Shown here in pieces: positions 1,299-50,957 of a stretch of 64,000 nucleotides of DNA. Under the pieces are notes generated by a model, which saw only the letters and a program-made list of their open reading frames with translations, had not been told where the DNA came from and did not search any database. The DNA is from a bacterium (lineage in GTDB: Bacteria; SZUA-182; DTGQ01; JBLIRR01): NCBI GenBank assembly GCA_049472395.1, contig JBLIRR010000012.1, positions 55,777-119,776 of the forward strand, in the 5' to 3' direction. Made by a program: the position numbers and the translations under genes. Positions within the stretch are counted from its first letter, which is position 1, and each line of letters starts with the position of its first letter.

Positions 1299-2723
1299 TT
1301 AGTGATGTCCGATTAAACGTTTTAACCTTTTATTGAGAGCAGATTGCGTTATACCTAAAAGGGATGCTGCTATTGATTGATTGTTTTTTGCTCTCTTTAA
1401 AGCTTCTTTAATGGCCAATTCTGAAATCTGACGCAGGGTTGGGAATTTATCTTTAATAATAAAGATCGGTTCATTTATTTTTCTGGCAGTATAATGTCCT
1501 GAGAGGTGAGAATCATTTATATGGCCAAGTTTTTCTCTAAAGCAGTTTAATGAGAGCGTGCCTCTGATATGCCTGCTGACGGCTTCAAATACCATTGCCT
1601 TTAATTCACGTATATTTCCTGGAAAATGATATGTTTCAAGTAGTGTGTATAATTGAGGGGGAATATTAGTGACCTTCACCCCGATCTCTTGAGATGCTTG
1701 ATGAATAAAATGATGTATGAGCACTGGTAAATCCTCAAAGCGCTCCCTGAGGGGAGGAACTTTAATTTCATAAACCCGAAGGCGATAATAAAGATCACTG
1801 CGAAATTTTTTCTGAACAACCAAATCACTTAAATTTTTATTCGTCGCGGTAATAATACGTGCATTGGCCCGTTCGACGAAATCTGAGCCGAGAGGATAAT
1901 ATTCGTGTGTTTCAAGAAGACGCAACAGCTTTATTTGTGAGGAAGCACTGAGGTCTCCAATCTCATCAAGAAAAAGAGTGCCGAATGCTGCTTTTTTGAT
2001 GAGCCCCTCACGGACAGTATCTGCACTTGTAAATGCACCTTTTTTATGTCCAAAGAGGGTATCGGCAAATACACTATCATCTAAACCCGCTGCATTAACC
2101 ACGATATAGTTGCCTTTCCTTCCGCTCAAGGAGTGAATACATTGTGCAATAAGTTCTTTTCCCGTGCCTGATTCACCCGAAATTTGAATGGGAAGGTTTG
2201 TTTTTGATATGGACTCAACGTAGAGAAATAATTTTTTCATTGAATCACTTGTAGTAATGATATTGGAGAATATTTTAGGATGTTTAAGTATATGTGAAAA
2301 AAAGTATTGTTTTAAATTAAGGTTTTCTTCTCTCAATTCCCTGATCTTCAGCGCATTTGTTACTGCAGTGATAAGTTTTTGATTCTCAATTGATTTGACT
2401 AAATAATCAGATGCCCCCATCTTCATGCATCGTATGGCTGTTTCAACTTCATTAAGACCAGTTATAATAATAATTGAGGTATCTGGAAAATCCTCTTTTA
2501 TTATGGGAAGTAATTTCTCTCCTGAAATATACGGCATAGTTAAGTCAAGCAGGACTAAGCCAACCTTCTTCTCATTTATAATTTCAATTACCTGTGTGCT
2601 TTCATTGCAGCATAATATATTGTTCATTCCTGCTGCTTTGAGCACTCGGCTAAGGCTTACTAAAATCTGGGTTTCATCATCTACAATTAATATAGGATTT
2701 AAGGGATATAATGTGTCATTCAT
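1299..2723 (-). CDS. Sigma-54-dependent response regulator (NtrC family)
   Basis: N-terminal receiver domain (ILIVDDE...), AAA+ sigma-54 activator motifs GESGTGKE and GAFTSA, C-terminal HTH; 8-nt overlap with upstream kinase gene. Confidence 0.9.
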   Translation of the reverse strand: MNDTLYPLNPILIVDDETQILVSLSRVLKAAGMNNILCCNESTQVIEIINEKKVGLVLLDLTMPYISGEKLLPIIKEDFPDTSIIIITGLNEVETAIRCMKMGASDYLVKSIENQKLITAVTNALKIRELREENLNLKQYFFSHILKHPKIFSNIITTSDSMKKLFLYVESISKTNLPIQISGESGTGKELIAQCIHSLSGRKGNYIVVNAAGLDDSVFADTLFGHKKGAFTSADTVREGLIKKAAFGTLFLDEIGDLSASSQIKLLRLLETHEYYPLGSDFVERANARIITATNKNLSDLVVQKKFRSDLYYRLRVYEIKVPPLRERFEDLPVLIHHFIHQASQEIGVKVTNIPPQLYTLLETYHFPGNIRELKAMVFEAVSRHIRGTLSLNCFREKLGHINDSHLSGHYTARKINEPIFIIKDKFPTLRQISELAIKEALKRAKNNQSIAASLLGITQSALNKRLKRLIGHH

Positions 2724-5418
2724 AATATTCTTTCCTCGCTGATAAAATAATTTGAGCTGTTGTTCCCTGACCCTCTTGCGAACTCAGATTCAGGCGTCCA
2801 TTATGTTCATTAATAATAGTCTGAGATACTGAAAGTCCAAGACCTGTCCCGCCCTGTTCCCTTTTTGTGGTAAAGAAGGGATCCTTAATTTTCTTAAGAT
2901 TGCGGTGAGGAATACCCGTTCCTTCATCTTTTACTTCAATGGTGACAGTCCCTTTATCTTTCTGTTGATAGGTTAAAATAAAAATACCCTGTGTTCTATT
3001 TGTTAAGGCATGACAGGCATTTTGGATTAAATTTATGACTACCTGCTCCAAGCGCTGGCTATTTCCTTGAATCATGGGCAGATTTTCATCAAGAAGAAAG
3101 GTAAAATTCCTGGTTGATTTTTTAAGCATAGTTGATGTAAGAGAAATGGCAGATTGAACTATTTGATTAATATTTAATAGGGTAAACTGTCTATGAGGAT
3201 CTTTTCTGGCAAAATTTTTTAATTCTTTCACGATTCTGTCAATCCTTATAGCGCCATCAGCGATATCGTTTAAGCAATTGAGAATGTCATCCCGAATATG
3301 TGAGTAGTGGAGCCCTCCAATAATAAAATCACCATTCTCTCCATAATAATTATTGAGAATGGGGAGCGCCCCCTCAAGAATCCTTCTCAAAAATGGAGTG
3401 TTTGACATAATAAACTGATTTGGATTATTTATCTCATGGGCCACTCCTGTTACCAGTGTCCCCAATGAGGCAAGCTTATCAGCCTGGATAAGCTGTTCTT
3501 GTTTTTCACGTGCTTCTTTTTCCATCTTTTTACGTTCAGTTATGTCTTCGATCATTCCCATTAAATATTTTGGATTGCCCGATTGCTCTCGAACAAGGCT
3601 CACAGTGAGGTTTGCCCAAATTATAGAGCCATTTTTATGATAATACCGTTTTTCTATGGAATATGTTTTTAGAGTATCGTGAAGCAATTTTTCATGATGC
3701 TCCAGATCTATTGCCAAATCTTCAGGATGTGTAATCTGCTCAAAGGTTAATTCTAATAATTCATTCTGAGTATAGCCGACCATTGTGCAAAAACGCTGGT
3801 TGACTTTAAGAAAACGCCCATCAGGCCTCGCATATACCATACCAACGGCAGCCTGTTCAAATATCTTCCGGAATCGCTCTTCACTTTCTCTCAAGGCCTT
3901 CTCAGTCCGTTTACGCATCGTGATATCTTGCACTGTTCCATATAAGCGTCGTGGATTTTCCTCCTTATCTCTCTCTACTATTCCTTGAGAAAACAATATT
4001 CTTTCTTCCCCATGATTTGTGATAATTCGATACTCAATCTCGTAGGAATTACCATTTTTCAGTGTATCGTGGATAGCCATATTGAGATGAATAAAATCGT
4101 CAGGATACACCCTATCCCTATATATATCATAAGTAATATCAACTGCTTTTGGTTCGTAGCCGAATAATCTATATACTTCATCTGACCATGTTATTGTGCC
4201 CTCAGTTATGTCCCACTCCCAGTCGCCGATGTGGCCGATCTCTTGAGCCTTCGCTAATCTATCGCGATTTCCTTGCAGTTTCTTTTCAACCTCTTTACGT
4301 TCGGCGATTTCCTTTTTTAATTGCTCATTGCTCATTTTGAGCTCAACTGTGCGCTCGTTTACCATATGCTCAAGATGATCCCGGTGTTTTATAAGTTCTT
4401 CTTCCGCCTGTTTTCGTTCAATAATCTCACCTATTCGTTTTGCGATTATTTTAATGAGATCCTTATCTGAACCTCGATCTTTTTCACGATAACTTATTTC
4501 CAATGATCCTTTTACATTACCATGAACTTTAATAGGCTCTGAGTGCGTGCATTCGCTCTGTTGGGGACTGTGGGTAGTATATTCATAATCTTCAAAGATT
4601 ATTTTAGGGTTGGTCATGTTCGAATGTTTCAATGAAGAGGAAATAATCTTTACTGCTTCCTGAATTATTTTCTCTAAGCTCATATAGTGCTCATCAATTC
4701 TTGAAATCCCATAGAGACAGTTGAGTTCTTTCAGCCGCTTATTAAGAATGAGCATTAGCAATCTGTTTTCCTTCTCTACCTTTTTCCGCTTAGTAATATC
4801 CTTAATATCTTCAACAATCCCCACAAGCTCACCCGTGAGACTCTTGAAGGGCGTTGCTGTGACAATACAATGAATTTTGATCCCATTTTGCCCCTCTTTT
4901 TCAACATCGCATTCTATATACCTCTCGCCTCGTAGAATTTTATTTAATGGACAATCAAGGGTTTGACACAGCGAGCCATGAAATGTCTCAAAACACTTTT
5001 TCCCTATTGCATCCTCTCTATTTACACCTAACATCTTTGACAGAGTGTCATTAATTTTAAGCACAGTGAAATCTTTATTAATTAAGCGCATGCCATCGGC
5101 CGCTGTGTTAAATATCTGATCGAGCTCAATTTGAGCGAATTTGATAACATCTTTTTCCTGCTTTAGTCTGTTCATTATATATTGCGCGCTCGCTCCGAAT
5201 AGTATGATTAATACTATGATTATTACACGCATCCATATTTCATGGAGAGGAGGAGTCATTAGATGGTTGAGGAAATTATGTCCCGGAAATATATATGCAT
5301 GAATTTCGGATCCAAGTACCCAATAAAGTGCGCCTGTAACGATGCCGGCAAGAAGGAATGGCCCCCCTGCTTTATTCGCTACTTCTCTCATTCTTACTTT
5401 TCTTATATTGTGTATCAC
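2716..5418 (-). CDS. Membrane-anchored multi-PAS sensor histidine kinase
   Basis: N-terminal TM helices, several PAS-like segments, coiled-coil, HisKA H-box (GVAHEINNP) and HATPase_c G-boxes (GTGIPH, GGTGLGLS). Confidence 0.9.
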   Translation of the reverse strand: MIHNIRKVRMREVANKAGGPFLLAGIVTGALYWVLGSEIHAYIFPGHNFLNHLMTPPLHEIWMRVIIIVLIILFGASAQYIMNRLKQEKDVIKFAQIELDQIFNTAADGMRLINKDFTVLKINDTLSKMLGVNREDAIGKKCFETFHGSLCQTLDCPLNKILRGERYIECDVEKEGQNGIKIHCIVTATPFKSLTGELVGIVEDIKDITKRKKVEKENRLLMLILNKRLKELNCLYGISRIDEHYMSLEKIIQEAVKIISSSLKHSNMTNPKIIFEDYEYTTHSPQQSECTHSEPIKVHGNVKGSLEISYREKDRGSDKDLIKIIAKRIGEIIERKQAEEELIKHRDHLEHMVNERTVELKMSNEQLKKEIAERKEVEKKLQGNRDRLAKAQEIGHIGDWEWDITEGTITWSDEVYRLFGYEPKAVDITYDIYRDRVYPDDFIHLNMAIHDTLKNGNSYEIEYRIITNHGEERILFSQGIVERDKEENPRRLYGTVQDITMRKRTEKALRESEERFRKIFEQAAVGMVYARPDGRFLKVNQRFCTMVGYTQNELLELTFEQITHPEDLAIDLEHHEKLLHDTLKTYSIEKRYYHKNGSIIWANLTVSLVREQSGNPKYLMGMIEDITERKKMEKEAREKQEQLIQADKLASLGTLVTGVAHEINNPNQFIMSNTPFLRRILEGALPILNNYYGENGDFIIGGLHYSHIRDDILNCLNDIADGAIRIDRIVKELKNFARKDPHRQFTLLNINQIVQSAISLTSTMLKKSTRNFTFLLDENLPMIQGNSQRLEQVVINLIQNACHALTNRTQGIFILTYQQKDKGTVTIEVKDEGTGIPHRNLKKIKDPFFTTKREQGGTGLGLSVSQTIINEHNGRLNLSSQEGQGTTAQIILSARKEYYE

Positions 5419-11969: not shown

Positions 11970-14054
11970 TTACCTTGTCCTTACTTTATATCCAACTTCG
12001 ATAATGCCACCAGCGCAGTCCCCTGGAATCTCAGCCTTGGAAAATCCTTTCTCCACTTCTTGAATATTTGCTTTACCGAGAAGATTACGTTCATCCTTAA
12101 AGATATTAAATTTCATGCCGGGGAAAATTCCTTTTTCCGTTCCCGTATCTGTATGGAACGTTTTTCCATTTTTTGCGATGATAGTCCCTGTACATAAAGG
12201 AAAAGAGTCCCGAAATTTCATTGAAAGACCGGAAATAATTAATGAAAGGTCATCGATGGTCTCAGAGGGGCTAAATACATCGTGATAGAGACGAATAAGA
12301 CCAGTATCAACTTCGATGAACCTTGCGAGTATCTCAATTCCATCCTCTCTTGTCGTGACGTATCCATATATTATTCCTTCTGCAGTTGTTATTTTGCCTA
12401 TCTGGTGCGCTTCAAGGCCCTGGATACTTTTCTCCATTATTATTTTGGGTAGTTTTTCCCGTTCGACCAAGGTAAAACGCCCCTGTTCTGAAAAAGATTC
12501 AATGGTCTTATTATAGATATAAGGAATAGTGGATTCATCATTCCTCATGCCATCACTCTCAAAAGGGAGTATAGCCAGTATCATCTTTTCTTCACTTTTA
12601 AAGATTTTTTCTCGCGGAACTTTCTGTATATAATGATGCGCTTCATCTTGATTTCCTAATCTATCTTCTACCAAAAGATTGAGCACTGTCATTTTTTCTT
12701 TAAGATGTATCATCTTATTAATATAATAAATATTATACCTTAACAAAATTGTGCGAACAAGTTCTATATATTTTTGAGGATTCTTGATTTCAGGAGTACG
12801 TGTTCGAAGTTTATCCATATTATTTTCCACAATCGTTTCTATTTCCGATATATGAAATAGTGTCCTATCATTGAGCTTTATCTGTTGTATTCCATTATTA
12901 GTCCGAATAATGCCCTCTAAAAAGATGTCGTGGTAATAGGTGGCAAAATCTTCTTTTGGTGGGTAGGTGATCTCAATGGAGATATCTCTTTTTGAGGGTA
13001 TCATCGCCAAAGTTGATGGCTCTCCATCATGAGAGGGCATATTCTGAGCAATTTTAACCCATTTTCCCGGTGGCGGCGTAAGAGGTATTTCCCCTTGAGT
13101 GATATTGCCGGCGTTATCTTTTGTCCAAAATGTAGCCGTCTTTAAGCCCTTAGTAAGAGGAATTGAGTGTTCAATAAGACACACCTGGTCAAGACCTATC
13201 GTGGGTACTTCTTTCTGATTCAGTGTAAAGGATTGAATACCGGACAGGTCATACACTATTGCGGTAAGAAGCACTTGATCTATTTTACCGCTTTTGTCAG
13301 GGTAGATTATATCTGCGATTACTATGGGTCCTTGTTGATCAAGGAAAATACGAATAGCCTTTTCTGCTTCTTTGCCGACTAGATCTTTGGTGGTGATGCT
13401 CACAGTATTCCAGCCCGCCTCAAGATCGACTGATACATGAAAGGGGAAGATAGGTTCGGCTAATTCAATAAACAGGGGATCGTGGTTTACTGAAACAGCA
13501 GCTATATAGTGATCATCATGTGCCATTCCGGTAACGCTGAAAGTAGTTTTATTCGTTCGGTATAGTTCTTTTTGCATTTCCAAATCGATCCCGGGAGGTT
13601 GTATATCCAATCCCGATGCAATGAGAGATGCCTTGCGAGTTTGATTAAGATAATATTTGGCCCTTGCCGAGCCACTGTGGCTCATAGATAATTCCAGTTC
13701 TTCTAATGCGTCCTCGATTAGTCCAAGATGGAAATAGCATATACCCAGTTCGCGATGAGGGAAATATCCTTCGCGGAAATGCATTCCATATGCCCTGGCA
13801 TATGGTTGATCTTGGTAACGAAGTTCAATAGCATCCTTGAATTCTGAAATCGCATATTCCCAACATCCTCCCCGCATACAGCTTATGCCCCGTCTATAGC
13901 ATGCATCCCAGGTTACCACATGAATCTTGTCTTGAGTAATACAATATTTCTTACCATCTTTGATACAGATTCTCGCCTTTTGCATAGAACATGCATAGAT
14001 AAGAATGATCATCCCTAGAAGCACAACATTTTTTATTTTGTCGTGTTTATACAT
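11970..14054 (-). CDS. TPR-containing lipoprotein with TolB-N-like and C-terminal beta module; partner of the cyclase-CHAT protein
   Basis: Lipobox-type signal peptide (IYACS); TPR-like helices near the N-terminus; LAILPFESDG segment and a C-terminal module resembling the C-terminus of the upstream gene product; 9-bp gap to the upstream gene. Confidence 0.7.
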   Translation of the reverse strand: MYKHDKIKNVVLLGMIILIYACSMQKARICIKDGKKYCITQDKIHVVTWDACYRRGISCMRGGCWEYAISEFKDAIELRYQDQPYARAYGMHFREGYFPHRELGICYFHLGLIEDALEELELSMSHSGSARAKYYLNQTRKASLIASGLDIQPPGIDLEMQKELYRTNKTTFSVTGMAHDDHYIAAVSVNHDPLFIELAEPIFPFHVSVDLEAGWNTVSITTKDLVGKEAEKAIRIFLDQQGPIVIADIIYPDKSGKIDQVLLTAIVYDLSGIQSFTLNQKEVPTIGLDQVCLIEHSIPLTKGLKTATFWTKDNAGNITQGEIPLTPPPGKWVKIAQNMPSHDGEPSTLAMIPSKRDISIEITYPPKEDFATYYHDIFLEGIIRTNNGIQQIKLNDRTLFHISEIETIVENNMDKLRTRTPEIKNPQKYIELVRTILLRYNIYYINKMIHLKEKMTVLNLLVEDRLGNQDEAHHYIQKVPREKIFKSEEKMILAILPFESDGMRNDESTIPYIYNKTIESFSEQGRFTLVEREKLPKIIMEKSIQGLEAHQIGKITTAEGIIYGYVTTREDGIEILARFIEVDTGLIRLYHDVFSPSETIDDLSLIISGLSMKFRDSFPLCTGTIIAKNGKTFHTDTGTEKGIFPGMKFNIFKDERNLLGKANIQEVEKGFSKAEIPGDCAGGIIEVGYKVRTR

Positions 14055-14063
14055 GAGGATTCC

Positions 14064-16877
14064 CTAGAGCTTTTTTTCAGTCCCTTTTATAGGATCTCCA
14101 GATTCAAATGGTACGTTTTGCTCAAGGATTTCTGCTACAGCCGTGCTTTCGTTTACCTTTTTTATGAGGATATACCCTTTTGTGGTTCTTTCTTCTGGTG
14201 TATCTAATTCCGGTGTATTTAAGACCGTGAAGACCTGATCCTGCCTCACTCCCATATTATGTCCAAGATTAATCTTGATCTCATCTCCTTCCAAAGACAT
14301 TATTCTACCTTTGAGAGGGTAATGGGTTGCGAGATTCTCGATGGTTTTACGGACCAATTCGGAGGCAATAGTTTCTAAGCTCTCTGTCTCAGGAAAGAAT
14401 GGTTGAGAGAATGCAGTGAGTATTTCAGTACTGTGTGTTTCTACAAGGCGAAGGCTTATTTCCGATTGTAATCCTTCACGTGTTTTATATGAGACGGGCT
14501 CAGGGAAAAGAATGATGCGGGCAGAGAGCAGTGTATAGGCATCCTGTAATGATTTTGATGAAAGTGTGGGAATCCCAATCTGAAGCTCCTGCAATATTCC
14601 TGCTATCCTTTTTCGCTCAAGTACGGACAAGCCAATTGAGGTGGTCTGAGTAAATACCTCAATCATCCTATTGAAAAGCTTTTCATAATGACCCTTCAAG
14701 GATACAACAGCAGGATCATCCAGTTCCTGCCAGTTCGGTGCAATGATACAAATGGAGATAGGCTGTGATGTCCATGTATCTGACTGGCTCTTGGTTGCGA
14801 AAAAACCTTTATTGTTAAATTGTTGGGTAAGCTGATCTTGATAGGAAGAAAGAATTTGAATAGTCTGTGTTATTTTTTGAAAATCAGGGTCTATTCCGGC
14901 TTCTTGAATGTAAGAGGGGAAAATGTTCGGAAGATTTCCATGAGGATCTTTATATGATTTTTTAAGACCCATATAGGCGTTTGTAATAAGAAGCATAATG
15001 ATAAGAGAGAGGCTTGCTCCCGTGAGCACTTGTTTCCATGACCAGGTTTTTTTATTGCTCTCTTTTATGTTTAAATCTCTATGAGCTGTCTCTGACCTCA
15101 CCATGCAATATTTTTTCTCATCCGGCTCTGGCTCCTTGATTTGTTCCATATAATTCGATGTGGGATCTCCGTACAGGACATAGCTTGCCCAGATAATCGC
15201 CTCTTCTTCATATTGATTAATTAATGAGAGCCTAGCTTTTCTTAAAGCTTCTCCTATGCTCATGCCAGAGAGAATGTTTTCATAGAATTCTAATGCAAAA
15301 TAACTTCCTTGGTTATCAGGAATTTCCCAGAATGTCCCAATGTAATGTTTTACTCCTGCTAAAAGAAACGCATTGGCCAATCCGAAGATTTCCTCCTGAA
15401 ATTGTTCTTTTAAGGTCCATTCATTAGTGCGTGCTGATTGACATGCATTCGAGAAAATAAGGGCGGGCATCTTTGAGGTGGCTATTGTGCTGATATCCCG
15501 TGCTGTGATGTTTTTACCTCCGGTTTTCCATCCACTCTCCTCGGGGCTTGTGTGATTAAACTCGGCATGACCTGCAAAATGGACAATATCAAATTGTTCA
15601 AATTTTTTTTTCAGATATTCACAGGTCAGGTTTTTTGAGCGTAAGGTAATATTTATGAAATTCTTTTCTCTCAGCATGAAGTCACGAATCCGAGAGCCTT
15701 CTGCATATGCATTCTTCAGATCCCCTTCCAGGTCTGCTATGATCAGCATATTTAATGGCTTTGACAATACCCGTGATTTACTTCCATTCACTGTCTGTTT
15801 GGTTTTTACTAATCTCCCCATATTGAAACGTTGACAAAGGAATTGATGGCCATCAAAAATAAGCTCCCAAGGGATCTGGACGAGTTGGTCATCGATATGT
15901 AAGGTTAAGTAATGCGCCCTTGTTTCGTCAAGCTTTTTCTTAAGGGAAGGGGAAAACAGTTTTTCATAAAAGGCCTGCCCAGTCTCTCTTAGTTTTAGGA
16001 GAAGCTCACGCTTGAAAATACCCAGGCGAAGCGCTTTATTAAAGGTATCGACCATCTCATTGCATTCTTTATTAATCCACTCCATGGAGATTGGGATCTG
16101 TTCATAATGACGAATAGTGCTTTCTTCTCCGGCCATGTGCTCATTAGAGCTAATTTTTAAATGATCCCTCTCACAAAGCACTTCGAGCCGAAAGACCATT
16201 ATGGATTTTTTCATTCTCTCTTCATCGGGTTCTTCACTAGCGCGCAGTTTCGGCTTTCCCCAGATGACCTGGAAAAGCTTTAAAGATTGAGCCCTACCTC
16301 TTGGAAGAGAGTATTTATCATACATACAGGTAATGTCCTCAGAGGATTTGACTTTTTCATAGACCTTCTTTGAGATAATTATCTGATAAGCCTTAGCGTG
16401 AGATTGGATACGTGATGCTTGACTTACCGCATTACCATAAATATCTGACTCCTTCATATAAACCTCATCCCAACTTATGCCGATCCTCACATGTATTTTA
16501 GAAATTTCTCCTATGATGGTGTTATAGGCATATAATCTTTTCTGAATTGCTATTGAGGCTTTTACTGCCGAGAGAGGATCTGGGAAATAGGCCATAAGCT
16601 CATCTCCCAGGGTTTTATATATCGTCCCCTTATTGCCTGCAATGATAGGCATGACGATCTGCCTGAGTTTTTGCACAAGACTTTTCCCGCACACATCACT
16701 GCGGGTATCAATAAAGTTTGGATAGTCATAAATGTTGGCAAAAAGAATAGCGAGTTTCTTCTTGTATTGTCCATTTAAAATTTCATCAATAAATTCTTTC
16801 CCCACTAATATTTCTTCAATCATGCCAGGGAATTTTCCAAAGAATACTTCATGATCTCTTGGCTTTAATTCCTCCAT
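14064..16877 (-). CDS. Membrane-anchored class III nucleotidyl cyclase domain / CHAT protease domain fusion protein
   Basis: N-terminal cyclase homology motifs (LAILFANIYD, YKTLGDELMAYF, RIGISWDEV, YGNAVSQASRIQS); CHAT motifs (QIPWELI, HFAGHA, FSNACQSA, AGVKHYIGTFWEIPD); one TM helix; ~300-aa C-terminal extracytoplasmic region. Confidence 0.8.
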   Translation of the reverse strand: MEELKPRDHEVFFGKFPGMIEEILVGKEFIDEILNGQYKKKLAILFANIYDYPNFIDTRSDVCGKSLVQKLRQIVMPIIAGNKGTIYKTLGDELMAYFPDPLSAVKASIAIQKRLYAYNTIIGEISKIHVRIGISWDEVYMKESDIYGNAVSQASRIQSHAKAYQIIISKKVYEKVKSSEDITCMYDKYSLPRGRAQSLKLFQVIWGKPKLRASEEPDEERMKKSIMVFRLEVLCERDHLKISSNEHMAGEESTIRHYEQIPISMEWINKECNEMVDTFNKALRLGIFKRELLLKLRETGQAFYEKLFSPSLKKKLDETRAHYLTLHIDDQLVQIPWELIFDGHQFLCQRFNMGRLVKTKQTVNGSKSRVLSKPLNMLIIADLEGDLKNAYAEGSRIRDFMLREKNFINITLRSKNLTCEYLKKKFEQFDIVHFAGHAEFNHTSPEESGWKTGGKNITARDISTIATSKMPALIFSNACQSARTNEWTLKEQFQEEIFGLANAFLLAGVKHYIGTFWEIPDNQGSYFALEFYENILSGMSIGEALRKARLSLINQYEEEAIIWASYVLYGDPTSNYMEQIKEPEPDEKKYCMVRSETAHRDLNIKESNKKTWSWKQVLTGASLSLIIMLLITNAYMGLKKSYKDPHGNLPNIFPSYIQEAGIDPDFQKITQTIQILSSYQDQLTQQFNNKGFFATKSQSDTWTSQPISICIIAPNWQELDDPAVVSLKGHYEKLFNRMIEVFTQTTSIGLSVLERKRIAGILQELQIGIPTLSSKSLQDAYTLLSARIILFPEPVSYKTREGLQSEISLRLVETHSTEILTAFSQPFFPETESLETIASELVRKTIENLATHYPLKGRIMSLEGDEIKINLGHNMGVRQDQVFTVLNTPELDTPEERTTKGYILIKKVNESTAVAEILEQNVPFESGDPIKGTEKKL

Positions 16878-23200: not shown

Positions 23201-23253
23201 CACAGAGATCACAGTAGTAGAGTGAAATCACCGTCTCCGCTGTGATCTCTGTG
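23201..23253. terminator. Long-loop hairpin between convergent genes (putative bidirectional terminator)
   Basis: Perfect 14-bp inverted repeat CACAGAGATCACAG / CTGTGATCTCTGTG with a 25-nt loop, followed by an AT-rich stretch. Confidence 0.4.
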
Positions 23254-23288: not shown

Positions 23289-23912
23289 TCAATAGCCGAG
23301 AATAGCTGCCGGCGTCAATAGGGAGCTGAATGTAGGCGTAGGAGTAATCAGAGAGGCTAACCAGGGTGTCAAACCTGTTAAATTCGGTGGGAGCGCTATG
23401 GTGCTCGCCAGATTAGCATAATTTGGATATTCAGCAATATAGGCTAAGTTAGCAATCGGCACGACATCCTCAATCCACAGAGGATCTGTCGGAAGTAATA
23501 GTGAAAAACCAAGCGGCAGACCAACGGGTATGGGGAGACCGGTTACCGTATCTATCATATAATTTGGCGGCCAAAGATTTATGCCGTAGAGAGGATCGTA
23601 ATAGGCCATTCCAATAGGAGTATTATAGAGTAAATAGGGGTAGCTAAAACTAGGGTTCCACGTTAATCCCGGCTGTACTGGCAGGACAGTTGTAGGATAC
23701 AGGGAATCAACGATTGGAGTGGCTAGTCCTGTCACAGGATCTGGTGGTGAGAGAGCAGGGGACCATAAAGGCCACAAGGTATTATAAGGTGGTAACGGGG
23801 TCCATGTCTGGGCATTGAGGCATGGAGCACACACTAATAACGACAGGACAACAATACTAAAAAGGCATAGAGACATATTTCGTAATAATCTTCGTAGTTT
23901 TTTTGATAACAT
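23289..23912 (-). CDS. Secreted Pro/Trp/Tyr-rich protein, paralog of 567-1226
   Basis: Signal peptide ending CLNAQ; motifs PPYNTLWPLWSPALSP and YLLYNTPIGMAYYDPLYGINLWPP shared with the 567-1226 product; GGGAGG RBS; real start may be the internal MSLCLF. Confidence 0.8.
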   Translation of the reverse strand: MLSKKLRRLLRNMSLCLFSIVVLSLLVCAPCLNAQTWTPLPPYNTLWPLWSPALSPPDPVTGLATPIVDSLYPTTVLPVQPGLTWNPSFSYPYLLYNTPIGMAYYDPLYGINLWPPNYMIDTVTGLPIPVGLPLGFSLLLPTDPLWIEDVVPIANLAYIAEYPNYANLASTIALPPNLTGLTPWLASLITPTPTFSSLLTPAAILGY

Positions 23913-23980
23913 AAAATTTTTTACCTCCCTTAAGAATAATAGAATTTAAAAATTAGAAATCTAAAGAGTTATAAATTCTA

Positions 23981-23989
23981 ATTATACCA
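23981..23989 (-). promoter_or_regulatory. Extended -10 element TGGTATAAT upstream of paralog gene
   Basis: Reverse complement of ATTATACCA gives TGGTATAAT about 70 nt upstream of start 23912; identical element to the one before the 567 paralog. Confidence 0.3.
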
Positions 23990-24010
23990 CCTCCTTTAAA
24001 ACAGAAATTC

Positions 24011-24472
24011 TTATTGAAGATTTATCCAGGATAAGTAATAATCCACTAAGCCGAATGAATATGTAGGGTAATTAGGCGGACCATAGGGTTGAAAAGTACC
24101 CGGCAGAGCTTGATAAGGGAAAGGGATTGCTTCTATGTAACTTAAATAAGGGTACGTAGCACTATCAAAATAATTATAAAGATATACTGCATAAGGATCG
24201 AGAAAAGGATTGTAACTATAGGCCCCCAATAAATCATTACCAGCTATAGGTGGTTTATACCCATATCCAAGGTAGTAAAAAGGATCAGTGATCGAATTAA
24301 TGTATCCATAAGTTGTAAAATAAAGTGGATCAAGATAATAATAAGAAATAGGTAATTGCTGACAATATGTATTTATGGGGGTAATAATAAAATAGATCGA
24401 TAAAAAGATTAAAGCTATATATTTAAAAAATCTAAGACTATCCATAAAGCTCCTCCAATTTAAATTACCCAA
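24011..24472 (-). CDS. Secreted Tyr/Pro-rich low-complexity protein
   Basis: Hydrophobic N-terminal signal-like segment; mature part about 25% Tyr with repeated Y-x-Y, PY and DP motifs. Confidence 0.6.
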   Translation of the reverse strand: MGNLNWRSFMDSLRFFKYIALIFLSIYFIITPINTYCQQLPISYYYLDPLYFTTYGYINSITDPFYYLGYGYKPPIAGNDLLGAYSYNPFLDPYAVYLYNYFDSATYPYLSYIEAIPFPYQALPGTFQPYGPPNYPTYSFGLVDYYLSWINLQ

Positions 24473-24623
24473 CCGTTTATGTAGAATTTGAAATATATCT
24501 TGATTTTATCACCCCCTGTTTTCATTTCTTATGTAAAAATTATGATTATCCATCCGATCGAAAAGAAAAAATAAAATGAAAAAATGTTTAGATATATAGT
24601 GGTAATATTATAACCAAAAAACT

Positions 24624-24647
24624 AATAATTGTCAAGTGACAATTATT
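24624..24647. promoter_or_regulatory. Palindromic candidate operator
   Basis: AATAATTGTCA-AG-TGACAATTATT: 11-bp inverted repeat arms with a 2-bp spacer, in the intergenic region upstream of the 24011-24472 gene. Confidence 0.3.
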
Positions 24648-24753
24648 GATTACAGCAATTCTAATTTTGATTGTTAAATTCCTCGACCGCGGGGTCAGAT
24701 CTTGAAATATTGACAACGACTCGAAGGATAATCCTTTTTTAGAAATCTGTCTG

Positions 24754-25476
24754 TCAGGGAATAATTATTTGAGGGATTTCTCCAAGAAATTCTCCACTCT
24801 TTTTATTAAAAAATTGCGCGCTATAGGTGCCGGAGGGTAAATTTTCAATGAGTGTTGTGAGATCATAATTGCACACGCATCTGCACCCGCTGCCATCCAA
24901 TAGTTCTTCCTCATAAATGTTAATGGTATGATCAACTATTTCCATGCTTCTGGCTATCTCTATAATACAGCAATTAAAAAGTGCATCTTTATGATAGAGA
25001 TAGAGAATATCATGTTCATACAGGTAGCTGAATTGTGAATGCTTTTCTTCTCTTGTGGTGGGATTGCAGTCACTATTTGAGTACTCTTTAATTGCTGGTT
25101 CCAATGTTTCAGAACTTGTTGGTCCTAAGGGGAAAATCCAGGGGAAGTAGAGAGCAGGGGATGCCCACTGAAACTGATAATCAGGAATGGCCAACGGTGT
25201 ATTTACAAATGAAGGGAAAAAGTCTTGTCCCCATGAAGAGGAAGGAGACCATGGCGTAATGTAAATTGGTCTCTGGGAAAAGATTGAAGAATATGGCTCC
25301 CAGATTGACGATAACGATACCTGAGAAAAGAGTGGGGAAACTGTCCATCTATTATTCACAATAAATGGTGATGATGGATTTGTCGTGTATGAAGTGAATA
25401 ATTGTGCTTCTATATTAAAGGAAGACAATAAGAGGATAGAGATTAAAAGAATAATAATATAGCCCGCTTTTTTCAT
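24754..25476 (-). CDS. Secreted protein with Ser/Pro/Trp-rich N-terminal half and Cys-containing C-terminal domain
   Basis: Signal peptide (IILLISILLLSSFNIEA); the N-terminal half has low-complexity composition similar to the neighbouring secreted proteins. Confidence 0.65.
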   Translation of the reverse strand: MKKAGYIIILLISILLLSSFNIEAQLFTSYTTNPSSPFIVNNRWTVSPLFSQVSLSSIWEPYSSIFSQRPIYITPWSPSSSWGQDFFPSFVNTPLAIPDYQFQWASPALYFPWIFPLGPTSSETLEPAIKEYSNSDCNPTTREEKHSQFSYLYEHDILYLYHKDALFNCCIIEIARSMEIVDHTINIYEEELLDGSGCRCVCNYDLTTLIENLPSGTYSAQFFNKKSGEFLGEIPQIIIP

Positions 25477-25602
25477 TTTGCTAAGTATCCTTTTTTGTTA
25501 TGATGTTGCAATATCTTATGTATACTCAATATATACTTCCAAAAGCTTCTCTAAAAATGACACACTTTTTTGTATGATCTTACAATAAATGCAATAACTG
25601 CT

Positions 25603-25797
25603 CTATGGGCAGTTATCTTTCCTGGCACTACATTTTTTCTTAAAGGATTGGCACACAAATCCCGAGCTTTCACGAACCATGGCAGACGGGGTTTTTTTTG
25701 TTTTAAAGCCCATCGCTTTGCAGCCATAAGGAAAGTTTTTATCCCACGTGATATAAAAATAGTGACATTTATAACAATTAACGTCTCGCTCTGTCAT
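25603..25797 (-). CDS. Small Cys-rich protein, hypothetical
   Basis: 64-aa ORF with patterned Cys/aromatic residues (CYKCHYFYITWD...GCKAMGF...FVCQSF...C...C); overlaps an opposite-strand ORF of similar size. Confidence 0.35.
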   Translation of the reverse strand: MTERDVNCYKCHYFYITWDKNFPYGCKAMGFKTKKTPSAMVRESSGFVCQSFKKKCSARKDNCP

Positions 25798-41500: not shown

Positions 41501-44500
41501 ATGAAAAAGTTTAAAAGAGCATATTTTACAAGTTTTATAATTATCTCTTTATTATTGTGTGGATTAATATCCCGTGTAAATAATGTCCGAGCTGACGATA
41601 ATGTGTTTAATTATGATATTGGGGATTATCAGTGGGCACCCGGCTTCGGGTGGGGTGGATGGTCCACACGGGGGAGTTCTCCCAATGATGCGTGGGGCTC
41701 TTCAACGTTCTCTTCTTTTGATTTTTCACCAGGAAATAAGTTCGGGGGCTTTTTTACTAATATCTTAAGTGAACTTGTCTGTCCTTATGTGCCGGGTGTA
41801 ACGCTCGGCCCTTGGGTTACTTGCCCTCCGACTCCATCTCCCCCTCCTTGGCCCTCACCCGGCGAAGAGAATGAGGTATTTAGCAAAGAATATGAAATAT
41901 CGAAAGGTAAATATGGATACGGATGGGACTATTGTTGGGGTGGAAATTGTGGCACAACAGTTGATTCTTCAATGAGTGCAACAGATACTTTTTCTGTTCC
42001 CGAAAAAGGTATTTATTATGTAAGGATTTACAATGGCGGAGAAGCAAGTTATAAAGGTGACCGTGTATCCTCCGGTGAGATAAAAATCAATAATAAGAAG
42101 GTAATAAAAAGTAATGATTTTAACAAGAACGAGACATTCATTGAAGTTCAATTAGAGTTAAAAAAGGGGATAAATACGCTCTATGTAAAGATAAATGGAG
42201 CCCCGGGTGCTTTTATAGTGGTGAAGATAGTCAAGATAGTGGAACCTGTGCCTCCCCCTGTCATTGAATTCGAGGACGCAAAACTTGAGGCTGCGGTTCG
42301 CGCTGCTCTTGGAATTGGAAAGAATGAGCCTCTCACAGAGGACCTTCTTCTTGGTCTCACTGATTTATATGTGGATTCACTGGGTATTAAAAAACTTGGA
42401 GGGATAGAGTATTGCACAAATCTTGAATTTCTTAGCGCCTCGGATAATAAAATAAGTGACGTGGGTCCTCTCGCATTCCTTCATAATCTCATATGGCTCC
42501 ATCTTGCGCGAAACAATATCTCCAATGTAAGCGCATTGGAATATCTTACTGAGCTTGAGTGGCTCAATGTATCCAATAATACAATAACCAGCTTATTTCC
42601 CCTTATAGATTGTGATAATCTAGAGTGGCTCAATCTTTCCAATAATCCTATCAATCCTTATGATTTAAGTGATTTATCTCATATAGATCATTTATATTTT
42701 ACTAATGATCCGGCTGTCTATGATAGAACCACAGGAATGATGGCGACTGATTCGCGTGATGATAATTTTACGTTTACCTTTGAAGATCTCCTTGCGCATC
42801 CGGCAGATAGCGCTACCTTGACGCTCACTATCGAAGGAGATGTCGATGAATCGCGAGAGTATTTGAGTGTGTATTCGGGAAATCGCGATTTGGGTGATAT
42901 TTTTAAGAGCGGAAATCTAAAAGAATGTGATGGATTTAATGAGGCACAGATAGAAATTACTCCAGATGATCTGGAGTCCTTAATGCATAAGGGGAAAATT
43001 ACCTTTACTTTAATACCATCGAATTATGTTGATTTCAGTGAGTGTCATCTAAGAGCTTATCTGCGATTGGAATATGAAAGACAAGCGGTTGTTAAGCAGT
43101 ATGTTTTTGGTGATGAAACCGGAACCGCAACCTCCGATGGTGATCCTCTATCCTTTACCTATAAAGATATTCCTTTAGATCCACTCCATAATGTCAATTT
43201 AATTGTCAATGTCAATGGCGATGTGGGAAATCCCAGTGAGTATATTACGGTTAAGGCAGGCACTACGAAACTCGGAGATGTATATAAAACTGGGGGTCTT
43301 TTAGACTGCAGTGGATTTTATGAAGAAGTCATTCAAATAACCAAGGAACAGGTACAATCATTAACCACCGATGGAAAGATTACCTTTACCCTCGTGCCAT
43401 CGAGCGCTGTCGGGTATAGTGCGTGCAATCTGAGCGCTTATCTGAAACTTGAGTATGTATCGTATGTTTTTGGCCAGGAAACTGATACTATACTATCGGA
43501 CGGAGGACTATCCTTTACGTATAGAGATATTCCGGAAGACCCGGTTCGTGGCTGTATTTTAGAATTGAATGTTGAGGGTGATTTGGATAGTAGCAATGAA
43601 TATATCACTGTGAAAGCAGGAAGTACAATAATCGGACAGGTATATAAAGACGGAGATCCTAAGGAATGTAATGGTTTTAATGAAGAGCAGCTTGAAATAA
43701 GCGCAAGTAAGTTACAATCATTAACCAGTGGCGGAGAGATTACCTTTACATTAGTGCCATCGAGCGCTGTCGGATTTGGCACCTGTGATCTAAGTGTATA
43801 TGCAAGATTGGCATATGAAAGTGAGCCGCCCGTTACTCCCTTTCTGTTTGGTAAGCAAACTCCTACGGTAAATTCTGATGAGGGAGGAGTGTCCTTTACC
43901 TATAGTGGAATTCCTGTAGATCCTCTTCATGCGGTGAATCTTATTGTCAAAGCAAAGGGAGATTTGGGAGGTACCAATGAATATATTACTGTGAAAGCAG
44001 GCACGATCGTGCTTGGGAATTTATATAATACTCAAGGCCAGACAGACTGCGGTGAGCTCAAAGAAGAACAGATAACCATAAGCAAGGATGAATTGAAGTC
44101 CCTCACCACTTATGGTAAGATTACTTTTACATTGGTTCCCTCCAGTGCGGTGAGCTATGGTTCATGTGATCTGAGTGTAAATGTTAAGCTTGACTATGTA
44201 TCCTATGCTTTTGGGGAAGCAAGTGCTACGGTGTCATCTGATGGTGCATTATTTTTTACATTCAGAGAAATTCCGGCCAATCCTCAGCATCCTGTCAAAG
44301 TGGTTGTCAAAGCAAAGGGGGATTTGGGTGCCACGAATGAATACCTCACGATAAAAGCGGGTAGTACTGAACTTGGAAATTTATATACAACCTCCGACCA
44401 GACAGACTGTGGTGATTTTAAAGAAGTATCCATAACCTTGAGTAAGGATAAGGTGAAGTCCCTTGCGATTGATAATAAGATAACTTTTACATTGGTTCCA

Positions 44501-46432
44501 TCGAGCGCTGTCGGTTATGGTTCTTGTGATTTAAGTGCCAATTTAACACTCGTATATGAAAGTGAGCCACCCGTTCCTACCTATATTATTGGCGAAACAA
44601 CAGCGACAGTAAATTCCGATGGTGATGTAATATCTTTTACTTACGAGGAAATTCCTTCAAATCCGCTCCGTAATCTTACTATCATTGTCAAAGCAAAGGG
44701 GGATTTGGGCGACACGAATGAGTATATCACCTTAAAAGCAGGCGCCACTATACTTGCGGATTTGTATAGAGCACCTGATCTAGTAGATTGTGGCGAATTT
44801 GAAGAAGAGAAGATAATCATAAGTAAGAGTATGGTGCAATCCTTAACAGTGAATGGGCAGATTACCTTTTCATTAGTGCCATCTGGTGCGGTGAGTTATG
44901 GCACATGTGATCTAAGTGCGAATCTCACACTGGTATATGTAGGTGAACCCTCTATAGTGCCCGGTGTGTTTGGCAAGAAAACAGCCACGGCGACATCCGA
45001 CCAAGAACTCTCCTTTGCCTATAATGATGTTCCTGCGAATCCGCTTGAGAATTGTATCTTATCTGTTTTTTTCAAAGGGGATGTAGATCATTCCAGTGAA
45101 TTTATCACTGTCAAAGCGGGAAGTACTGTGCTCGGGTATTTATATAAAACAGGGAACCCAACGAGCTGTGATGTGTTTAATGAGGGGCAAATATTCATAA
45201 GTAAAAGTGCATTAAAGAACATGACAACCAACGGGGAAATAACCTTTACCTTAATCCCCTCTGCAGAGGTTAATATTTGCGATTCAAGCGCCTATATAAA
45301 ACTTGCATATGAAAGCCAACCCCCCGATACTACCTCTGTGTTTGGCAAGAAGACAGCAACGGTGACATCCGATGGTGTAATATCTTTTACCTATAGAGAG
45401 GTTCCTGCCCATCCACTCGATAATTGTATTTTATCCGTTTATTTCAAAGGGGATATAGATCAACCCAGTGAATATATCACTGTCACAGCAGGGGGGACTG
45501 AGCTTGAGGATTTGTATGCAACGGGAAATCCAACGAGTTGTGATGTGTTTAATGAAGGGCAAATATTCATAAGCAAAAGTGCATTAAAGAACATGACAAC
45601 CGACGGGGAAATAACCTTTACCTTAATTCCCTCTGAAGAAGTTAATTATTGTGATTCAAGCGCCTATATAAAACTTACATATGAAAATTACCTTCCTCCT
45701 GATTCATGTGTATTTGGACAAAAAACCCCCATCATGATCTTTGAGAATGAACTCTCCTTTATTTATAAGGGAATTCCTTCATCCCCGCATGATGACGTTA
45801 TCTTAATTCTTAATGCAGATGGGGATTTAGGCAGTACCAATGAGTTTATTACCGTGAAAGCAGGTGATACCGTGCTTGGCGATATATATAGAACCGCAGG
45901 TCTGACAGATTGCAGTGGACTCAAAGAGGATATTATAACAATTGGGAAGGATGAACTGGCTTCGCTCACAACAAATGGTGAAATAACATTTACATTAATT
46001 CCTTCCGGCGCGGTGAGTTATGTCTCGTGTGATCTGAGGATTTCTGCAGAACTCACATATGTATCCTATATATTTGGTGAGCAGACACCGACGGAGACCT
46101 CGGAGGGTTCAATATCTTTTAACTACAGAGGGATTCCTTCAGATTTGCTTGATGATGTCATTTTAATTGTCAACGCAGATGGAGATTTGGGTAAAAGCTA
46201 TGAGTTTATTACCGTGAAAGTAGGGAGTATAGAGCTTGGAGATTTATATAATACGGAGACTCTCACAGACTGCAGTGGATTTCATGAAGGATTTATAAAT
46301 ATTACCAAGGATGAATTGAAATCTTTAGCCACCGAAGATGGGAAGATTACATTTACATTAGTCCCATCGATTGCTGTTGATTTCAGTTCTTGTCCCCTAA
46401 GGGCCAATGTAATCCTCGACTATCAATCATAG
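41501..46432 (+). CDS. Giant secreted repeat protein: signal peptide, LRR region, about ten tandem ~120-aa Cys-containing repeats
   Basis: Signal peptide; Gly/Trp-rich N-terminal region; leucine-rich repeats (LxxLxLxxNxIS pattern); tandem units each with ITFTLVPS, EYITVKAG and two conserved Cys; GGGGGGAG RBS. Confidence 0.85.
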   Translation: MKKFKRAYFTSFIIISLLLCGLISRVNNVRADDNVFNYDIGDYQWAPGFGWGGWSTRGSSPNDAWGSSTFSSFDFSPGNKFGGFFTNILSELVCPYVPGVTLGPWVTCPPTPSPPPWPSPGEENEVFSKEYEISKGKYGYGWDYCWGGNCGTTVDSSMSATDTFSVPEKGIYYVRIYNGGEASYKGDRVSSGEIKINNKKVIKSNDFNKNETFIEVQLELKKGINTLYVKINGAPGAFIVVKIVKIVEPVPPPVIEFEDAKLEAAVRAALGIGKNEPLTEDLLLGLTDLYVDSLGIKKLGGIEYCTNLEFLSASDNKISDVGPLAFLHNLIWLHLARNNISNVSALEYLTELEWLNVSNNTITSLFPLIDCDNLEWLNLSNNPINPYDLSDLSHIDHLYFTNDPAVYDRTTGMMATDSRDDNFTFTFEDLLAHPADSATLTLTIEGDVDESREYLSVYSGNRDLGDIFKSGNLKECDGFNEAQIEITPDDLESLMHKGKITFTLIPSNYVDFSECHLRAYLRLEYERQAVVKQYVFGDETGTATSDGDPLSFTYKDIPLDPLHNVNLIVNVNGDVGNPSEYITVKAGTTKLGDVYKTGGLLDCSGFYEEVIQITKEQVQSLTTDGKITFTLVPSSAVGYSACNLSAYLKLEYVSYVFGQETDTILSDGGLSFTYRDIPEDPVRGCILELNVEGDLDSSNEYITVKAGSTIIGQVYKDGDPKECNGFNEEQLEISASKLQSLTSGGEITFTLVPSSAVGFGTCDLSVYARLAYESEPPVTPFLFGKQTPTVNSDEGGVSFTYSGIPVDPLHAVNLIVKAKGDLGGTNEYITVKAGTIVLGNLYNTQGQTDCGELKEEQITISKDELKSLTTYGKITFTLVPSSAVSYGSCDLSVNVKLDYVSYAFGEASATVSSDGALFFTFREIPANPQHPVKVVVKAKGDLGATNEYLTIKAGSTELGNLYTTSDQTDCGDFKEVSITLSKDKVKSLAIDNKITFTLVPSSAVGYGSCDLSANLTLVYESEPPVPTYIIGETTATVNSDGDVISFTYEEIPSNPLRNLTIIVKAKGDLGDTNEYITLKAGATILADLYRAPDLVDCGEFEEEKIIISKSMVQSLTVNGQITFSLVPSGAVSYGTCDLSANLTLVYVGEPSIVPGVFGKKTATATSDQELSFAYNDVPANPLENCILSVFFKGDVDHSSEFITVKAGSTVLGYLYKTGNPTSCDVFNEGQIFISKSALKNMTTNGEITFTLIPSAEVNICDSSAYIKLAYESQPPDTTSVFGKKTATVTSDGVISFTYREVPAHPLDNCILSVYFKGDIDQPSEYITVTAGGTELEDLYATGNPTSCDVFNEGQIFISKSALKNMTTDGEITFTLIPSEEVNYCDSSAYIKLTYENYLPPDSCVFGQKTPIMIFENELSFIYKGIPSSPHDDVILILNADGDLGSTNEFITVKAGDTVLGDIYRTAGLTDCSGLKEDIITIGKDELASLTTNGEITFTLIPSGAVSYVSCDLRISAELTYVSYIFGEQTPTETSEGSISFNYRGIPSDLLDDVILIVNADGDLGKSYEFITVKVGSIELGDLYNTETLTDCSGFHEGFINITKDELKSLATEDGKITFTLVPSIAVDFSSCPLRANVILDYQS
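42760..46432 (+). repeat. Tandem array of about ten diverged ~360-bp coding repeats
   Basis: Recurring protein motifs imply a ~360-bp DNA period; two adjacent units are ~95% identical over ~120 nt (near 45150 and 45510). Confidence 0.75.
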
Positions 46433-50142: not shown

Positions 50143-50577
50143 TCAATAGTAAAGGCCGTAAAGTCCGCCGTAGAGTCCGCCATAATATCCGCCATAGAGT
50201 CCGCCGTAATAACCGCCATAGCCGCCGTAGAGTCCGCCGTAATAACCGCCATAGCCGCCGTAGAGTCCGCCATAATAACCGCCATAACCGCCATAGAGTC
50301 CGCCGTAATAACCGCCATATCCGCCATAACCGCCATAGAGTCCGCCGTAATAACCGCCATAGAGTCCACCGCCGTAAAGTCCATAAAGTCCACTATAGCT
50401 AGAGTAACCCGCGGTTCCATAATAGGGATACCCAAATATGCCTGAATTAGAATAATAGGGGCTTAAATATCCACCATAGCCACCATAGTAGGCATGTGCA
50501 GATTGGATAGTAAAACTCAAAGCCACGATAAATATTAAGAATGATAAAATAATAAGTTTATGAGTCGTTATTTTCAT
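50143..50577 (-). CDS. Secreted Gly-Tyr-rich tandem-repeat protein
   Basis: Start at internal Met with AGAGGA RBS (track ORF runs to 50634); signal peptide ending SAHA; mature part almost entirely YGG / LYGG / YYGG repeats. Confidence 0.7.
   Translation of the reverse strand: MKITTHKLIILSFLIFIVALSFTIQSAHAYYGGYGGYLSPYYSNSGIFGYPYYGTAGYSSYSGLYGLYGGGLYGGYYGGLYGGYGGYGGYYGGLYGGYGGYYGGLYGGYGGYYGGLYGGYGGYYGGLYGGYYGGLYGGLYGLYY
50160..50395. repeat. Short tandem DNA repeats (about 15-30 bp units) encoding the GY repeats
   Basis: Recurring units such as GCCGTAGAGTCCGCCGTAATAACCGCCATA visible directly in the sequence. Confidence 0.8.
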
Positions 50578-50957
50578 TTTTATTTCCTCTCTTATTACTT
50601 TCACAAAATTCTTTAATCTTTTTTTAATCTCCAAAGAATGCTTTGAATTTTATGATTTTAATCCTTCTCCCTCACCTCCTCTTTTTATGATTTTTCTTTT
50701 TCATATATATGCTCTTCTCGCCTTGACATTGGAGCATTTACAAAAAGAGATATCATTGGTTTATGAAAAAGCTATATTTACTCATTATATATTTACTCAT
50801 TATATATTCTATTAAAATATATCCTAAAAGCCTATTTTCTGCAATATATTCTTACAAAATTTTCACTTACGAATGTATCCGGAAAATTGATTTATCTCAG
50901 AGCAATAATAATATAATTATGCAAAATGTATACCAAAAAATGGAGCAGGTGAGAAAT

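Follow-up and report, generated by a model that had tools for sequence, protein, structure and literature searches.

Three adjacent genes for putative exported proteins

The window analysed here is the whole 64,000-nucleotide stretch of contig JBLIRR010000012.1 (positions 55,777 to 119,776 of the forward strand; assembly GCA_049472395.1), which belongs to a bacterial metagenome-assembled genome (MAG). Three consecutive genes on its reverse strand, designated A, B and C, encode small proteins that begin with putative signal peptides. A belongs to a genuine and so far undescribed family, lineage-specific and part of a conserved two-gene module formed with B; its function is what we infer below. 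The three genes are:

23289..23912, reverse strand: gene A (ACMUJM_09950), 207 amino acids, predicted signal peptide residues 1-34, mature protein 173 amino acids
24011..24445, reverse strand: gene B (ACMUJM_09955), 144 amino acids, predicted signal peptide residues 1-28, mature protein 116 amino acids
24754..25476, reverse strand: gene C (ACMUJM_09960), 240 amino acids, predicted signal peptide residues 1-24 (nucleotides 25405-25476)

All three are included in the Prokaryotic Genome Annotation Pipeline (PGAP) annotation of the source MAG, and each is preceded by a ribosome-binding site. The open reading frame (ORF) of B runs from 24011 to 24472, the likeliest start being the ATG at 24445, which has a GGAGGA ribosome-binding site ahead of it. 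Each N-terminus has a basic n-region followed by a hydrophobic core and then a small-residue cleavage site with Gln after it, cleavage being predicted between CLNA and QTW in A, between NTYC and QQL in B and between NIEA and QLF in C. The onset of conservation coincides with the predicted cleavage site (A34 and W37 in family A, Q29 in family B). We consider this good sequence-level evidence that the three proteins are exported via Sec with cleavage of the signal peptide. The Gln that would follow cleavage is present in A, B, C and many of their relatives and is invariant within family B (alignments A1 and A2), and an N-terminal pyroglutamate on the mature proteins is plausible. A Gln in this position recalls the Q-rule for secreted proteins of Bacteroidota.

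A contains 15.5% Pro, 18.8% Leu and 6.3% Tyr; its mature form is 17.9% Pro and has no Lys, Arg, His or Cys. Tyr makes up 19.4% of full-length B and about 22% of mature B, which has 25 Tyr residues, a single Lys and neither Arg, His nor Cys. C is 12.9% Ser and carries all six of its Cys residues within its C-terminal half. Among the 46 window proteins of at least 100 amino acids the four least charged are A, B, a paralog of A encoded at 573-1226 and a Gly-Tyr protein (the last two are described below), with charged residues at 6.3-8.6% against a window median of 26.6%. Entropy over 30 residues was 3.28-3.40 bits for A, B and the N-terminal half of C, compared with a window median of 3.61 and a value of 1.74 for the repetitive Gly-Tyr protein. 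The first three sequences have a biased composition but are not made of repeats.

A sequence-only reading of this DNA had proposed three same-strand signal-peptide genes within these limits, and the ORFs, the PGAP annotation and the export features bear this out, as does the position of the Cys residues for the Cys-containing C-terminal domain it had assigned to C. The paralog that it had assigned to A is the one at 573-1226. B had been described as one-quarter Tyr, which is right as to Tyr richness and slightly high as to the figure. The term low-complexity, which had been applied to the whole group, suits the Gly-Tyr protein and does not suit A or B, given their entropies and, for A, conservation and a confident predicted fold.

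The A family

At least 524 proteins are related to A at E <= 0.001, and none has a name or a Pfam domain. A, B and C were themselves without a Pfam match at E <= 1, and scans of the three against NCBIfam, PHROGs and PADLOC gave no match. Profile searches of PDB sequences using alignments of A, B and the C domain and a tblastn search of a plasmid collection with A were also negative. The closest relative of A, encoded on an ENA contig (L007; L numbers denote the loci fetched for comparison), is 79% identical with a dN/dS of 0.08, and the B protein of the same locus is 76% identical to B with a dN/dS of 0.11. Both genes are under purifying selection.

An alignment of 54 A-family sequences (A1) has 25 invariant columns, nearly all of which are W, P, Y, N, L or G, with D also among the invariant positions. 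The signature W-x-x-L-P-P-Y-N-x-L-W-P-L-W-S-P follows the signal peptide in proteins of about 175-300 amino acids and is present both in A and in the paralog at 573-1226. His, Cys, Ser, Lys, Arg and Glu are conserved nowhere in the alignment, and this lack of a conserved catalytic-type residue argues against A being an enzyme. Family-wide, the mature proteins average 0.6% Lys, 0.4% Arg, 0.1% His, 0.8% Glu, 17.6% Pro, 16.4% Leu and 4.6% Trp, the background values for Lys and Arg being 5.8% and 5.1%.

An AlphaFold2 model of A built from the 54-sequence alignment had a pLDDT (predicted local distance difference test score) of 89.4 and a pTM (predicted template modelling score) of 0.79. Six short strands are located in the N-terminal two-thirds, and helices span residues 144-173, 176-189 and 201-205. 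The signal peptide is also rendered as a confident helix packed in the model, and hence the packing is to be treated with care. A comparison of the model with PDB chains found no structural match. A is thus predicted to be a compact domain, beta-rich in its N-terminal part and ending in hydrophobic helices, without a solved analogue.

A pattern scan of one genome per species across 185,579 species gave 106 A-encoding loci, of which the best 80 were kept. These 80 come from only 11 uncultured MAGs, the sources of which are Futian mangrove and mudflat sediments (the JBLIRM-JBLIRT series; PMC13280167), Zodletone spring, cold seeps and two others. The Zodletone genome, Zod_Metabat.896 (JAFGSM), was put in the GTDB phylum SZUA-182 by its authors (PMC9040765, Tables S1/S2), and the SZUA-182 label that we use for the MAG set is the published classification of that one genome. 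By this distribution the family appears confined to candidate phylum SZUA-182 and its relatives, a single lineage without cultured members. As a domain family it is new and well defined, and its presence is diagnostic of the lineage.

Counted within the fetched loci only, and hence as lower bounds, A copies number 2-21 per genome; the window genome has at least ten, as judged from locus tags together with the paralog at 573-1226. Many A groups formed at 70% identity or more hold exactly one member per genome; paralogs within a genome are about 55% identical. These one-per-genome orthogroups indicate that the expansion of the family is old and retained rather than a fast-evolving repertoire. 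Some copies form same-strand tandem arrays:

L074, 3971-11068: nine A genes
L085, 3799-6995: five A genes
L082, 3988-6588: four A genes

The arrays in L082 and L085 adjoin genes for FG-GAP and NamZ (exo-beta-N-acetylmuramidase) proteins.

The B-A pair

Fifteen homologs of B were found, with identities of 45-76% and 30 invariant columns, and every B found lies directly upstream of an A ortholog. The order B then A recurs at 8 further loci in at least 7 genomes. B directly precedes an A ortholog in L007, L009, L011, L013, L014, L015 and L016, more weakly in L072, and also on a Joint Genome Institute contig. C is not present in any of the 8 other B-A loci. As judged from this gene order, the conserved unit is B-A, with C as a bystander. 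An AlphaFold model of B from 16 sequences had a pLDDT of 43 and no confident fold; B may be disordered alone, or may fold only in complex.

Gene C and its Cys-bearing module

C consists of two dissimilar parts downstream of its signal peptide:

25102-25404, reverse strand: orphan segment of C, about residues 25-125, aromatic/Ser/Pro-rich with few charges
about 24754-25101, reverse strand: Cys-bearing C-terminal module, about residues 126-240 (about 115 amino acids), 606 representatives

A word-index search with C returned only C itself. An exhaustive HMMER search gave 606 matches, essentially all to residues of about 102-240, three of which extend back to about residue 70-75; neither search found homologs of the N-terminal half. 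The module is often present in 2-6 tandem copies in larger secreted proteins together with other domains (META, BsuPI, cohesin/dockerin). Its alignment (A3) has the invariant residues C17, C49, E69, C80, C82 and G96 and the pattern C...NCC...CxC. No Pfam or PDB sequence match was found for the module, and a few members have sub-threshold matches to beta-sandwich families; that it forms a disulfide-stabilised sandwich is our guess. The module looks like a second undescribed domain family, and C itself appears to be an independent, poorly conserved neighbour that joins a charge-poor aromatic/Ser/Pro-rich segment to a disulfide-capable module.

Just upstream of C, at 25603-25797 on the reverse strand, is a Cys-rich ORF of 64 amino acids (MTERDVNCYKCHYFYITWDKNFPYGCKAMGFK...) that has no family match. 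A terminator-like hairpin at 25593-25617 overlaps its 3' end.

Promoters, terminators and a Shine-Dalgarno-like leader element

The intergenic regions around B and A, together with the leader of the Gly-Tyr gene, contain the following features (SD, Shine-Dalgarno):

24607..24635, reverse strand: sigma-70 consensus promoter, TTGACA-17-TATAAT, matching at 12/12 positions, about 160 nucleotides upstream of the B start and past the C stop
24509..24516, reverse strand: SD-like element GGGGGTGA in the B leader, about 65 nucleotides upstream of the B ATG and distinct from the GGAGGA ribosome-binding site of B
23987..23996, reverse strand: AAGGAGGTGG element in the B-A spacer, about 80 nucleotides upstream of the A ATG, overlapping the extended -10-like sequence TGGTATAAT
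50672-50679, reverse strand: GGAGGTGA in the Gly-Tyr gene leader, about 100 nucleotides upstream of the ATG at 50577
23201..23253, in the gap where A and a pmbA-like gene converge: hairpin whose 14-bp stem is perfectly paired

The relatives of the B-A pair have a conserved promoter, TTGCAA-16-TATAAT with a TG-extended -10, about 290 nucleotides upstream of B. The hairpin downstream of A had a z score of -5.05, with 0/200 shuffled sequences folding as well, and is probably a bidirectional terminator. Between C and B no significant hairpin was found (z = -0.89).

The SD-like leader element, AAGGAGGTGR, is complementary to the anti-SD. It precedes 40/100 A-family genes but only 27/590 other genes (loci L004-L085), an enrichment with an odds ratio of 13.9 and p = 3e-20. 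The non-A genes that have it include six B genes, genes for several secreted low-complexity proteins and the Gly-Tyr gene of the window. The AAGGAGGTGG form has 2 matches in the window against 0.28 expected by chance, and the element is also found in L007. No leader element was found upstream of C. On this sequence evidence the element appears to be the one independent tie linking A, B and the Gly-Tyr gene.

The element resembles STAB-SD, the leader stabiliser of the Bacillus thuringiensis cry3A mRNA (Agaisse and Lereclus 1996, pmid 8736542, cited in PMC7509114), which stabilises the mRNA of abundant Bacillus proteins. The likeness is in sequence; in contrast, the host here is unrelated and probably Gram-negative, and the element in the window overlaps a possible extended -10 promoter. 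A role as mRNA stabiliser is suggested by resemblance only.

The Gly-Tyr protein and the neighbourhoods of other A genes

Two genes elsewhere in the window bear on the B-A pair:

50143..50577, reverse strand: Gly-Tyr protein, 144 amino acids from the ATG at 50577, its mature form made up of G/Y/L repeats with no charged residue
573..1226 (ORF from 567), forward strand: second A paralog, 49% identical to A

A Gly-Tyr homolog is encoded near an A gene in L072. The paralog at 573-1226 adjoins a convergent gene for an NtrC-type sigma-54 activator (1299-2723) and a gene for a PAS histidine kinase (2716-5418), and in about a quarter of the loci A genes lie near two-component systems. In four orthologous loci (L026 5581, L034 5504, L037 5450 and L068 5658) an A paralog is divergent to genes for a dCache histidine kinase and an NtrC-type sigma-54 activator, and in all four a conserved sigma-54-type motif, TGGCAY-N5-ATGCT, precedes this paralog by 350-550 nucleotides. 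The idea that sigma-54 controls the family in general was considered and rejected, a sigma-54 promoter motif being found at 5/110 A genes and 22/615 other genes and thus not enriched overall, although one orthogroup has a conserved candidate.

Two more families of small secreted proteins (150-222 amino acids) are encoded beside A paralogs. They are 0-1% acidic and 13-17% Pro and have Leu-rich C-termini such as ...SLLSSLLL and ...TLLSFLLL (L022 2561-4420, L023 4549-7238, L029 4985-5533 and L043 5476-5961). Other neighbours of A genes encode LVIVD and PQQ beta-propellers, an FG-GAP protein, a subtilase and a cytochrome-c7-like protein. The propellers and the cytochrome-c7-like protein (L001 6927-11370, L004 2810-4678, L079 9681-12089 and L028 6569-8152) contain long stretches of low complexity, aromatic, Gly-Tyr or Pro in type, placed directly behind the signal peptide or C-terminally. 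Such stretches in large secreted proteins suggest an anchoring device or a habit of the whole lineage. The loci inspected showed no immunity, toxin or transporter domains near A genes.

Elsewhere in the window, a 937-aa protein with an adenylate/guanylate cyclase domain and a CHAT (caspase-like) domain is encoded at 14064-16877 on the reverse strand, the next gene (11970-14054, reverse strand) being that of a 694-aa TPR protein. A 1643-aa protein encoded at 41501-46432 on the forward strand has leucine-rich repeats as its sole recognisable domains.

A proposed role for the B-A module

The sequence-only reading had treated A, B and C as one cluster, a view that the other genomes contradict, as only B then A recurs. 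Conservation in related genomes holds for A and B but not for the N-terminal half of C, which has no homologs. The proposed link to the Gly-Tyr protein at 50143 fares better, since the leader element is common to A, B and the Gly-Tyr gene and a Gly-Tyr homolog is encoded near an A gene in L072, although the element does not extend to C. The suggestions of Tyr cross-linking, a sheath and adhesion gained no support, as nothing found bears on them; no cross-linking enzyme turned up in the analysis, which included no genome search aimed at such enzymes.

We tentatively favour the view, to which we give somewhat less than an even chance, that the B-A module supplies exported proteins in abundance which do not act as enzymes but are the building blocks of a hydrophobic protein structure at the surface or outside the cell. 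The view draws on the conservation of the proteins, their export signals, their depletion of charge and the lack of conserved catalytic-type residues in A, together with the confident A model that has no PDB analogue, the B-A synteny, the retained paralogs and their tandem arrays. To these are added the charge-free Pro-rich neighbours, the sigma-70 promoter and the leader element. The module would probably be highly expressed. A and B would be exported through Sec and would lose their signal peptides to give nearly uncharged mature proteins with an N-terminal Gln. Folded subunits of the A type would then assemble with varied small aromatic or proline-rich partners, namely B at this locus, the Gly-Tyr protein and, next to other paralogs, further charge-free families. 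The product would be a coat, a sheath, a matrix or a similar hydrophobic surface structure made of protein, into which C, although outside the conserved unit, may dock.

Several points weigh against this proposal. We infer the extracellular location of A and B, their assembly into a structure and their structural role from composition, expression signals and gene-family behaviour. Passage of A and B across an outer membrane is left unexplained, as no secretion or assembly machinery was recognised near any of 83 loci. The high proline content of A and its predicted globular fold argue against an amyloid-type fibre, the low pLDDT of B leaves that protein without a predicted structure, and part of the A model may be an artefact of the signal-peptide helix. 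The leader element may have a role other than mRNA stabilisation, and the two-component and sigma-54 neighbours of some A paralogs fit regulated, condition-specific proteins no less well than constitutive structural ones. A bolder form of the proposal, which we regard as doubtful, is that the Gly-Tyr protein and the further charge-free families join A and B in building an undescribed, essentially uncharged envelope coat, rich in aromatic residues and proline and specific to SZUA-182 and relatives, the fold being one without a solved analogue and the genes being marked by the leader element.

The predicted A fold, compact and confident rather than a repeat or fibre, would also suit proteins that do not polymerise but reside in the periplasm or at the outer membrane and bind hydrophobic, aromatic or glycan ligands, the paralogs being specialised by ligand or condition. 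The invariant positions are mostly Trp, Tyr and Asn, as on many surfaces that bind carbohydrates or lipids, the paralogs are kept as orthogroups at conserved positions, and some have sensor kinases and sigma-54 activators as neighbours, along with a conserved promoter of the sigma-54 type. We nevertheless consider ligand binding unlikely: A has no similarity to any known binding fold, near-zero charge is unusual for soluble periplasmic binding proteins, and the nine-gene arrays and charge-free low-complexity partners fit building blocks better. The same kinase and activator pairs, adjacent in several loci, and the many paralogs and tandem arrays might instead point to secreted effectors of cell interaction (adhesins, antagonistic proteins or signals), the repertoire of which would be switched by two-component systems. 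The paralogs, however, are old and conserved (dN/dS 0.08 and one-per-genome orthogroups) rather than fast-evolving, their loci lack nearby immunity, transporter or toxin domains and searches of the plasmid collection and of phage protein families gave no match, and to this explanation we attach very little probability.

The repeated pairing of a folded A with a differing, unstructured and charge-free partner gene admits another arrangement, in which A would escort or chaperone its aggregation-prone low-complexity neighbour (B here, Pro-rich families elsewhere) and the partners would be the functional material. That B lacks a predicted fold of its own is consistent with this idea, but most A genes have no such partner, the arrays consist of A genes only, a chaperone is not expected to be as charge-free as its client, and A has the same strong expression signals as B; we deem the idea highly improbable. 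There may also be no functional set at all, adjacency and the likeness to the Gly-Tyr protein reflecting a lineage-wide compositional habit of secreted proteins. C, which is not conserved beside B-A and has no leader element, fits such a habit, as do the many unrelated secreted proteins of the lineage that carry aromatic, Gly- or Pro-rich segments. The retention of the B-A order at 8 further loci in at least 7 genomes and the sharing of the leader element specifically by the A, B and Gly-Tyr genes speak against it, and we think it rather improbable.

All known sources of the lineage are sulfidic springs, cold seeps, and sediments of mangroves or mudflats. Should the building-block proposal be true, these bacteria would be covered by a protein material unlike any described surface layer, nearly charge-free and made from 10-20 retained paralogs of a fold without a solved analogue, joined by partners rich in Tyr, Gly and Pro. 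Such a material would give insight into the cell biology of an uncultured phylum and add a new class of hydrophobic, protease-poor protein materials. Function aside, the A family (at least 524 members and no Pfam model) is of value as a new domain family and lineage marker, the C module (606 representatives) as a second undescribed domain and the shared SD-like leader element as a testable post-transcriptional signal.

Comparison with known systems

Several classes of exported protein were compared with A, B and C; none proved to be a relative. Outer-membrane beta-barrels of the OmpX/OmpW size class do not fit, as the A model has no barrel but six short strands and three C-terminal helices, and no Pfam match was found; the terminal Tyr of A is its only beta-signal-like feature. 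Type IV pilins and pseudopilins are also a poor fit, the signal peptides being classical with an Ala-X-Ala-type site followed by Gln and no N_methyl match being obtained. PEP-CTERM/exosortase and sortase substrates were considered, but no NCBIfam match was found and the C-terminus of A (...SLLTPAAILGY) has no basic tail. The C module was compared with type IX secretion system sorting domains; it gave no Pfam or NCBIfam match and elsewhere is also internal and in 2-6 tandem copies.

The sulfur globule proteins SgpA-C of purple sulfur bacteria and the Tyr-rich spore-coat proteins are signal-peptide, Gly/Tyr-dominated envelope materials. The likeness to them is in composition only, through Gly plus Tyr in the Gly-Tyr protein and Tyr in B. 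The gene table of the relative JAFGSM has sat, asrAB and hdr, whereas Sox, sqr and fcc are not listed (PMC9040765 Table S2). A sulfur-globule envelope role for the Gly-Tyr protein, A and B thus gained no support from the table, in which sulfur-oxidation genes are lacking, and was dropped.

Closer in general character are the chaplins of Streptomyces (ChpA-H) and BslA, which are small Sec-secreted hydrophobic proteins, multi-paralog and non-enzymatic, and are thought to form a water-repellent layer. The A family likewise has Sec signals, hydrophobic sequences, many paralogs and no enzymatic residues. However, in a test for chaplins, hydrophobins and BslA there was no Pfam or NCBIfam match, mature A and B lack Cys and the A model matched no PDB chain. 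A shares no sequence or predicted-fold similarity with these proteins. It is three times larger, its proline content is 18%, and the prediction for it is a globular fold, not an amyloid. A also lacks a sortase or cell-wall anchor, and its lineage is a different one, without cultured members.

The curli csgBA genes form a two-gene operon for two small exported proteins, the minor partner first and the major subunit second. In the test for curli, neither Curlin_rpt nor any other Pfam family matched A, B or C at E <= 1. B-A differs from csgBA in having no curlin repeats and no csgEFG-like export genes nearby, and a folded domain, instead of a repeat-built beta-solenoid, is predicted for A. What B-A does share with csgBA is its layout, two small exported proteins encoded in a two-gene order.

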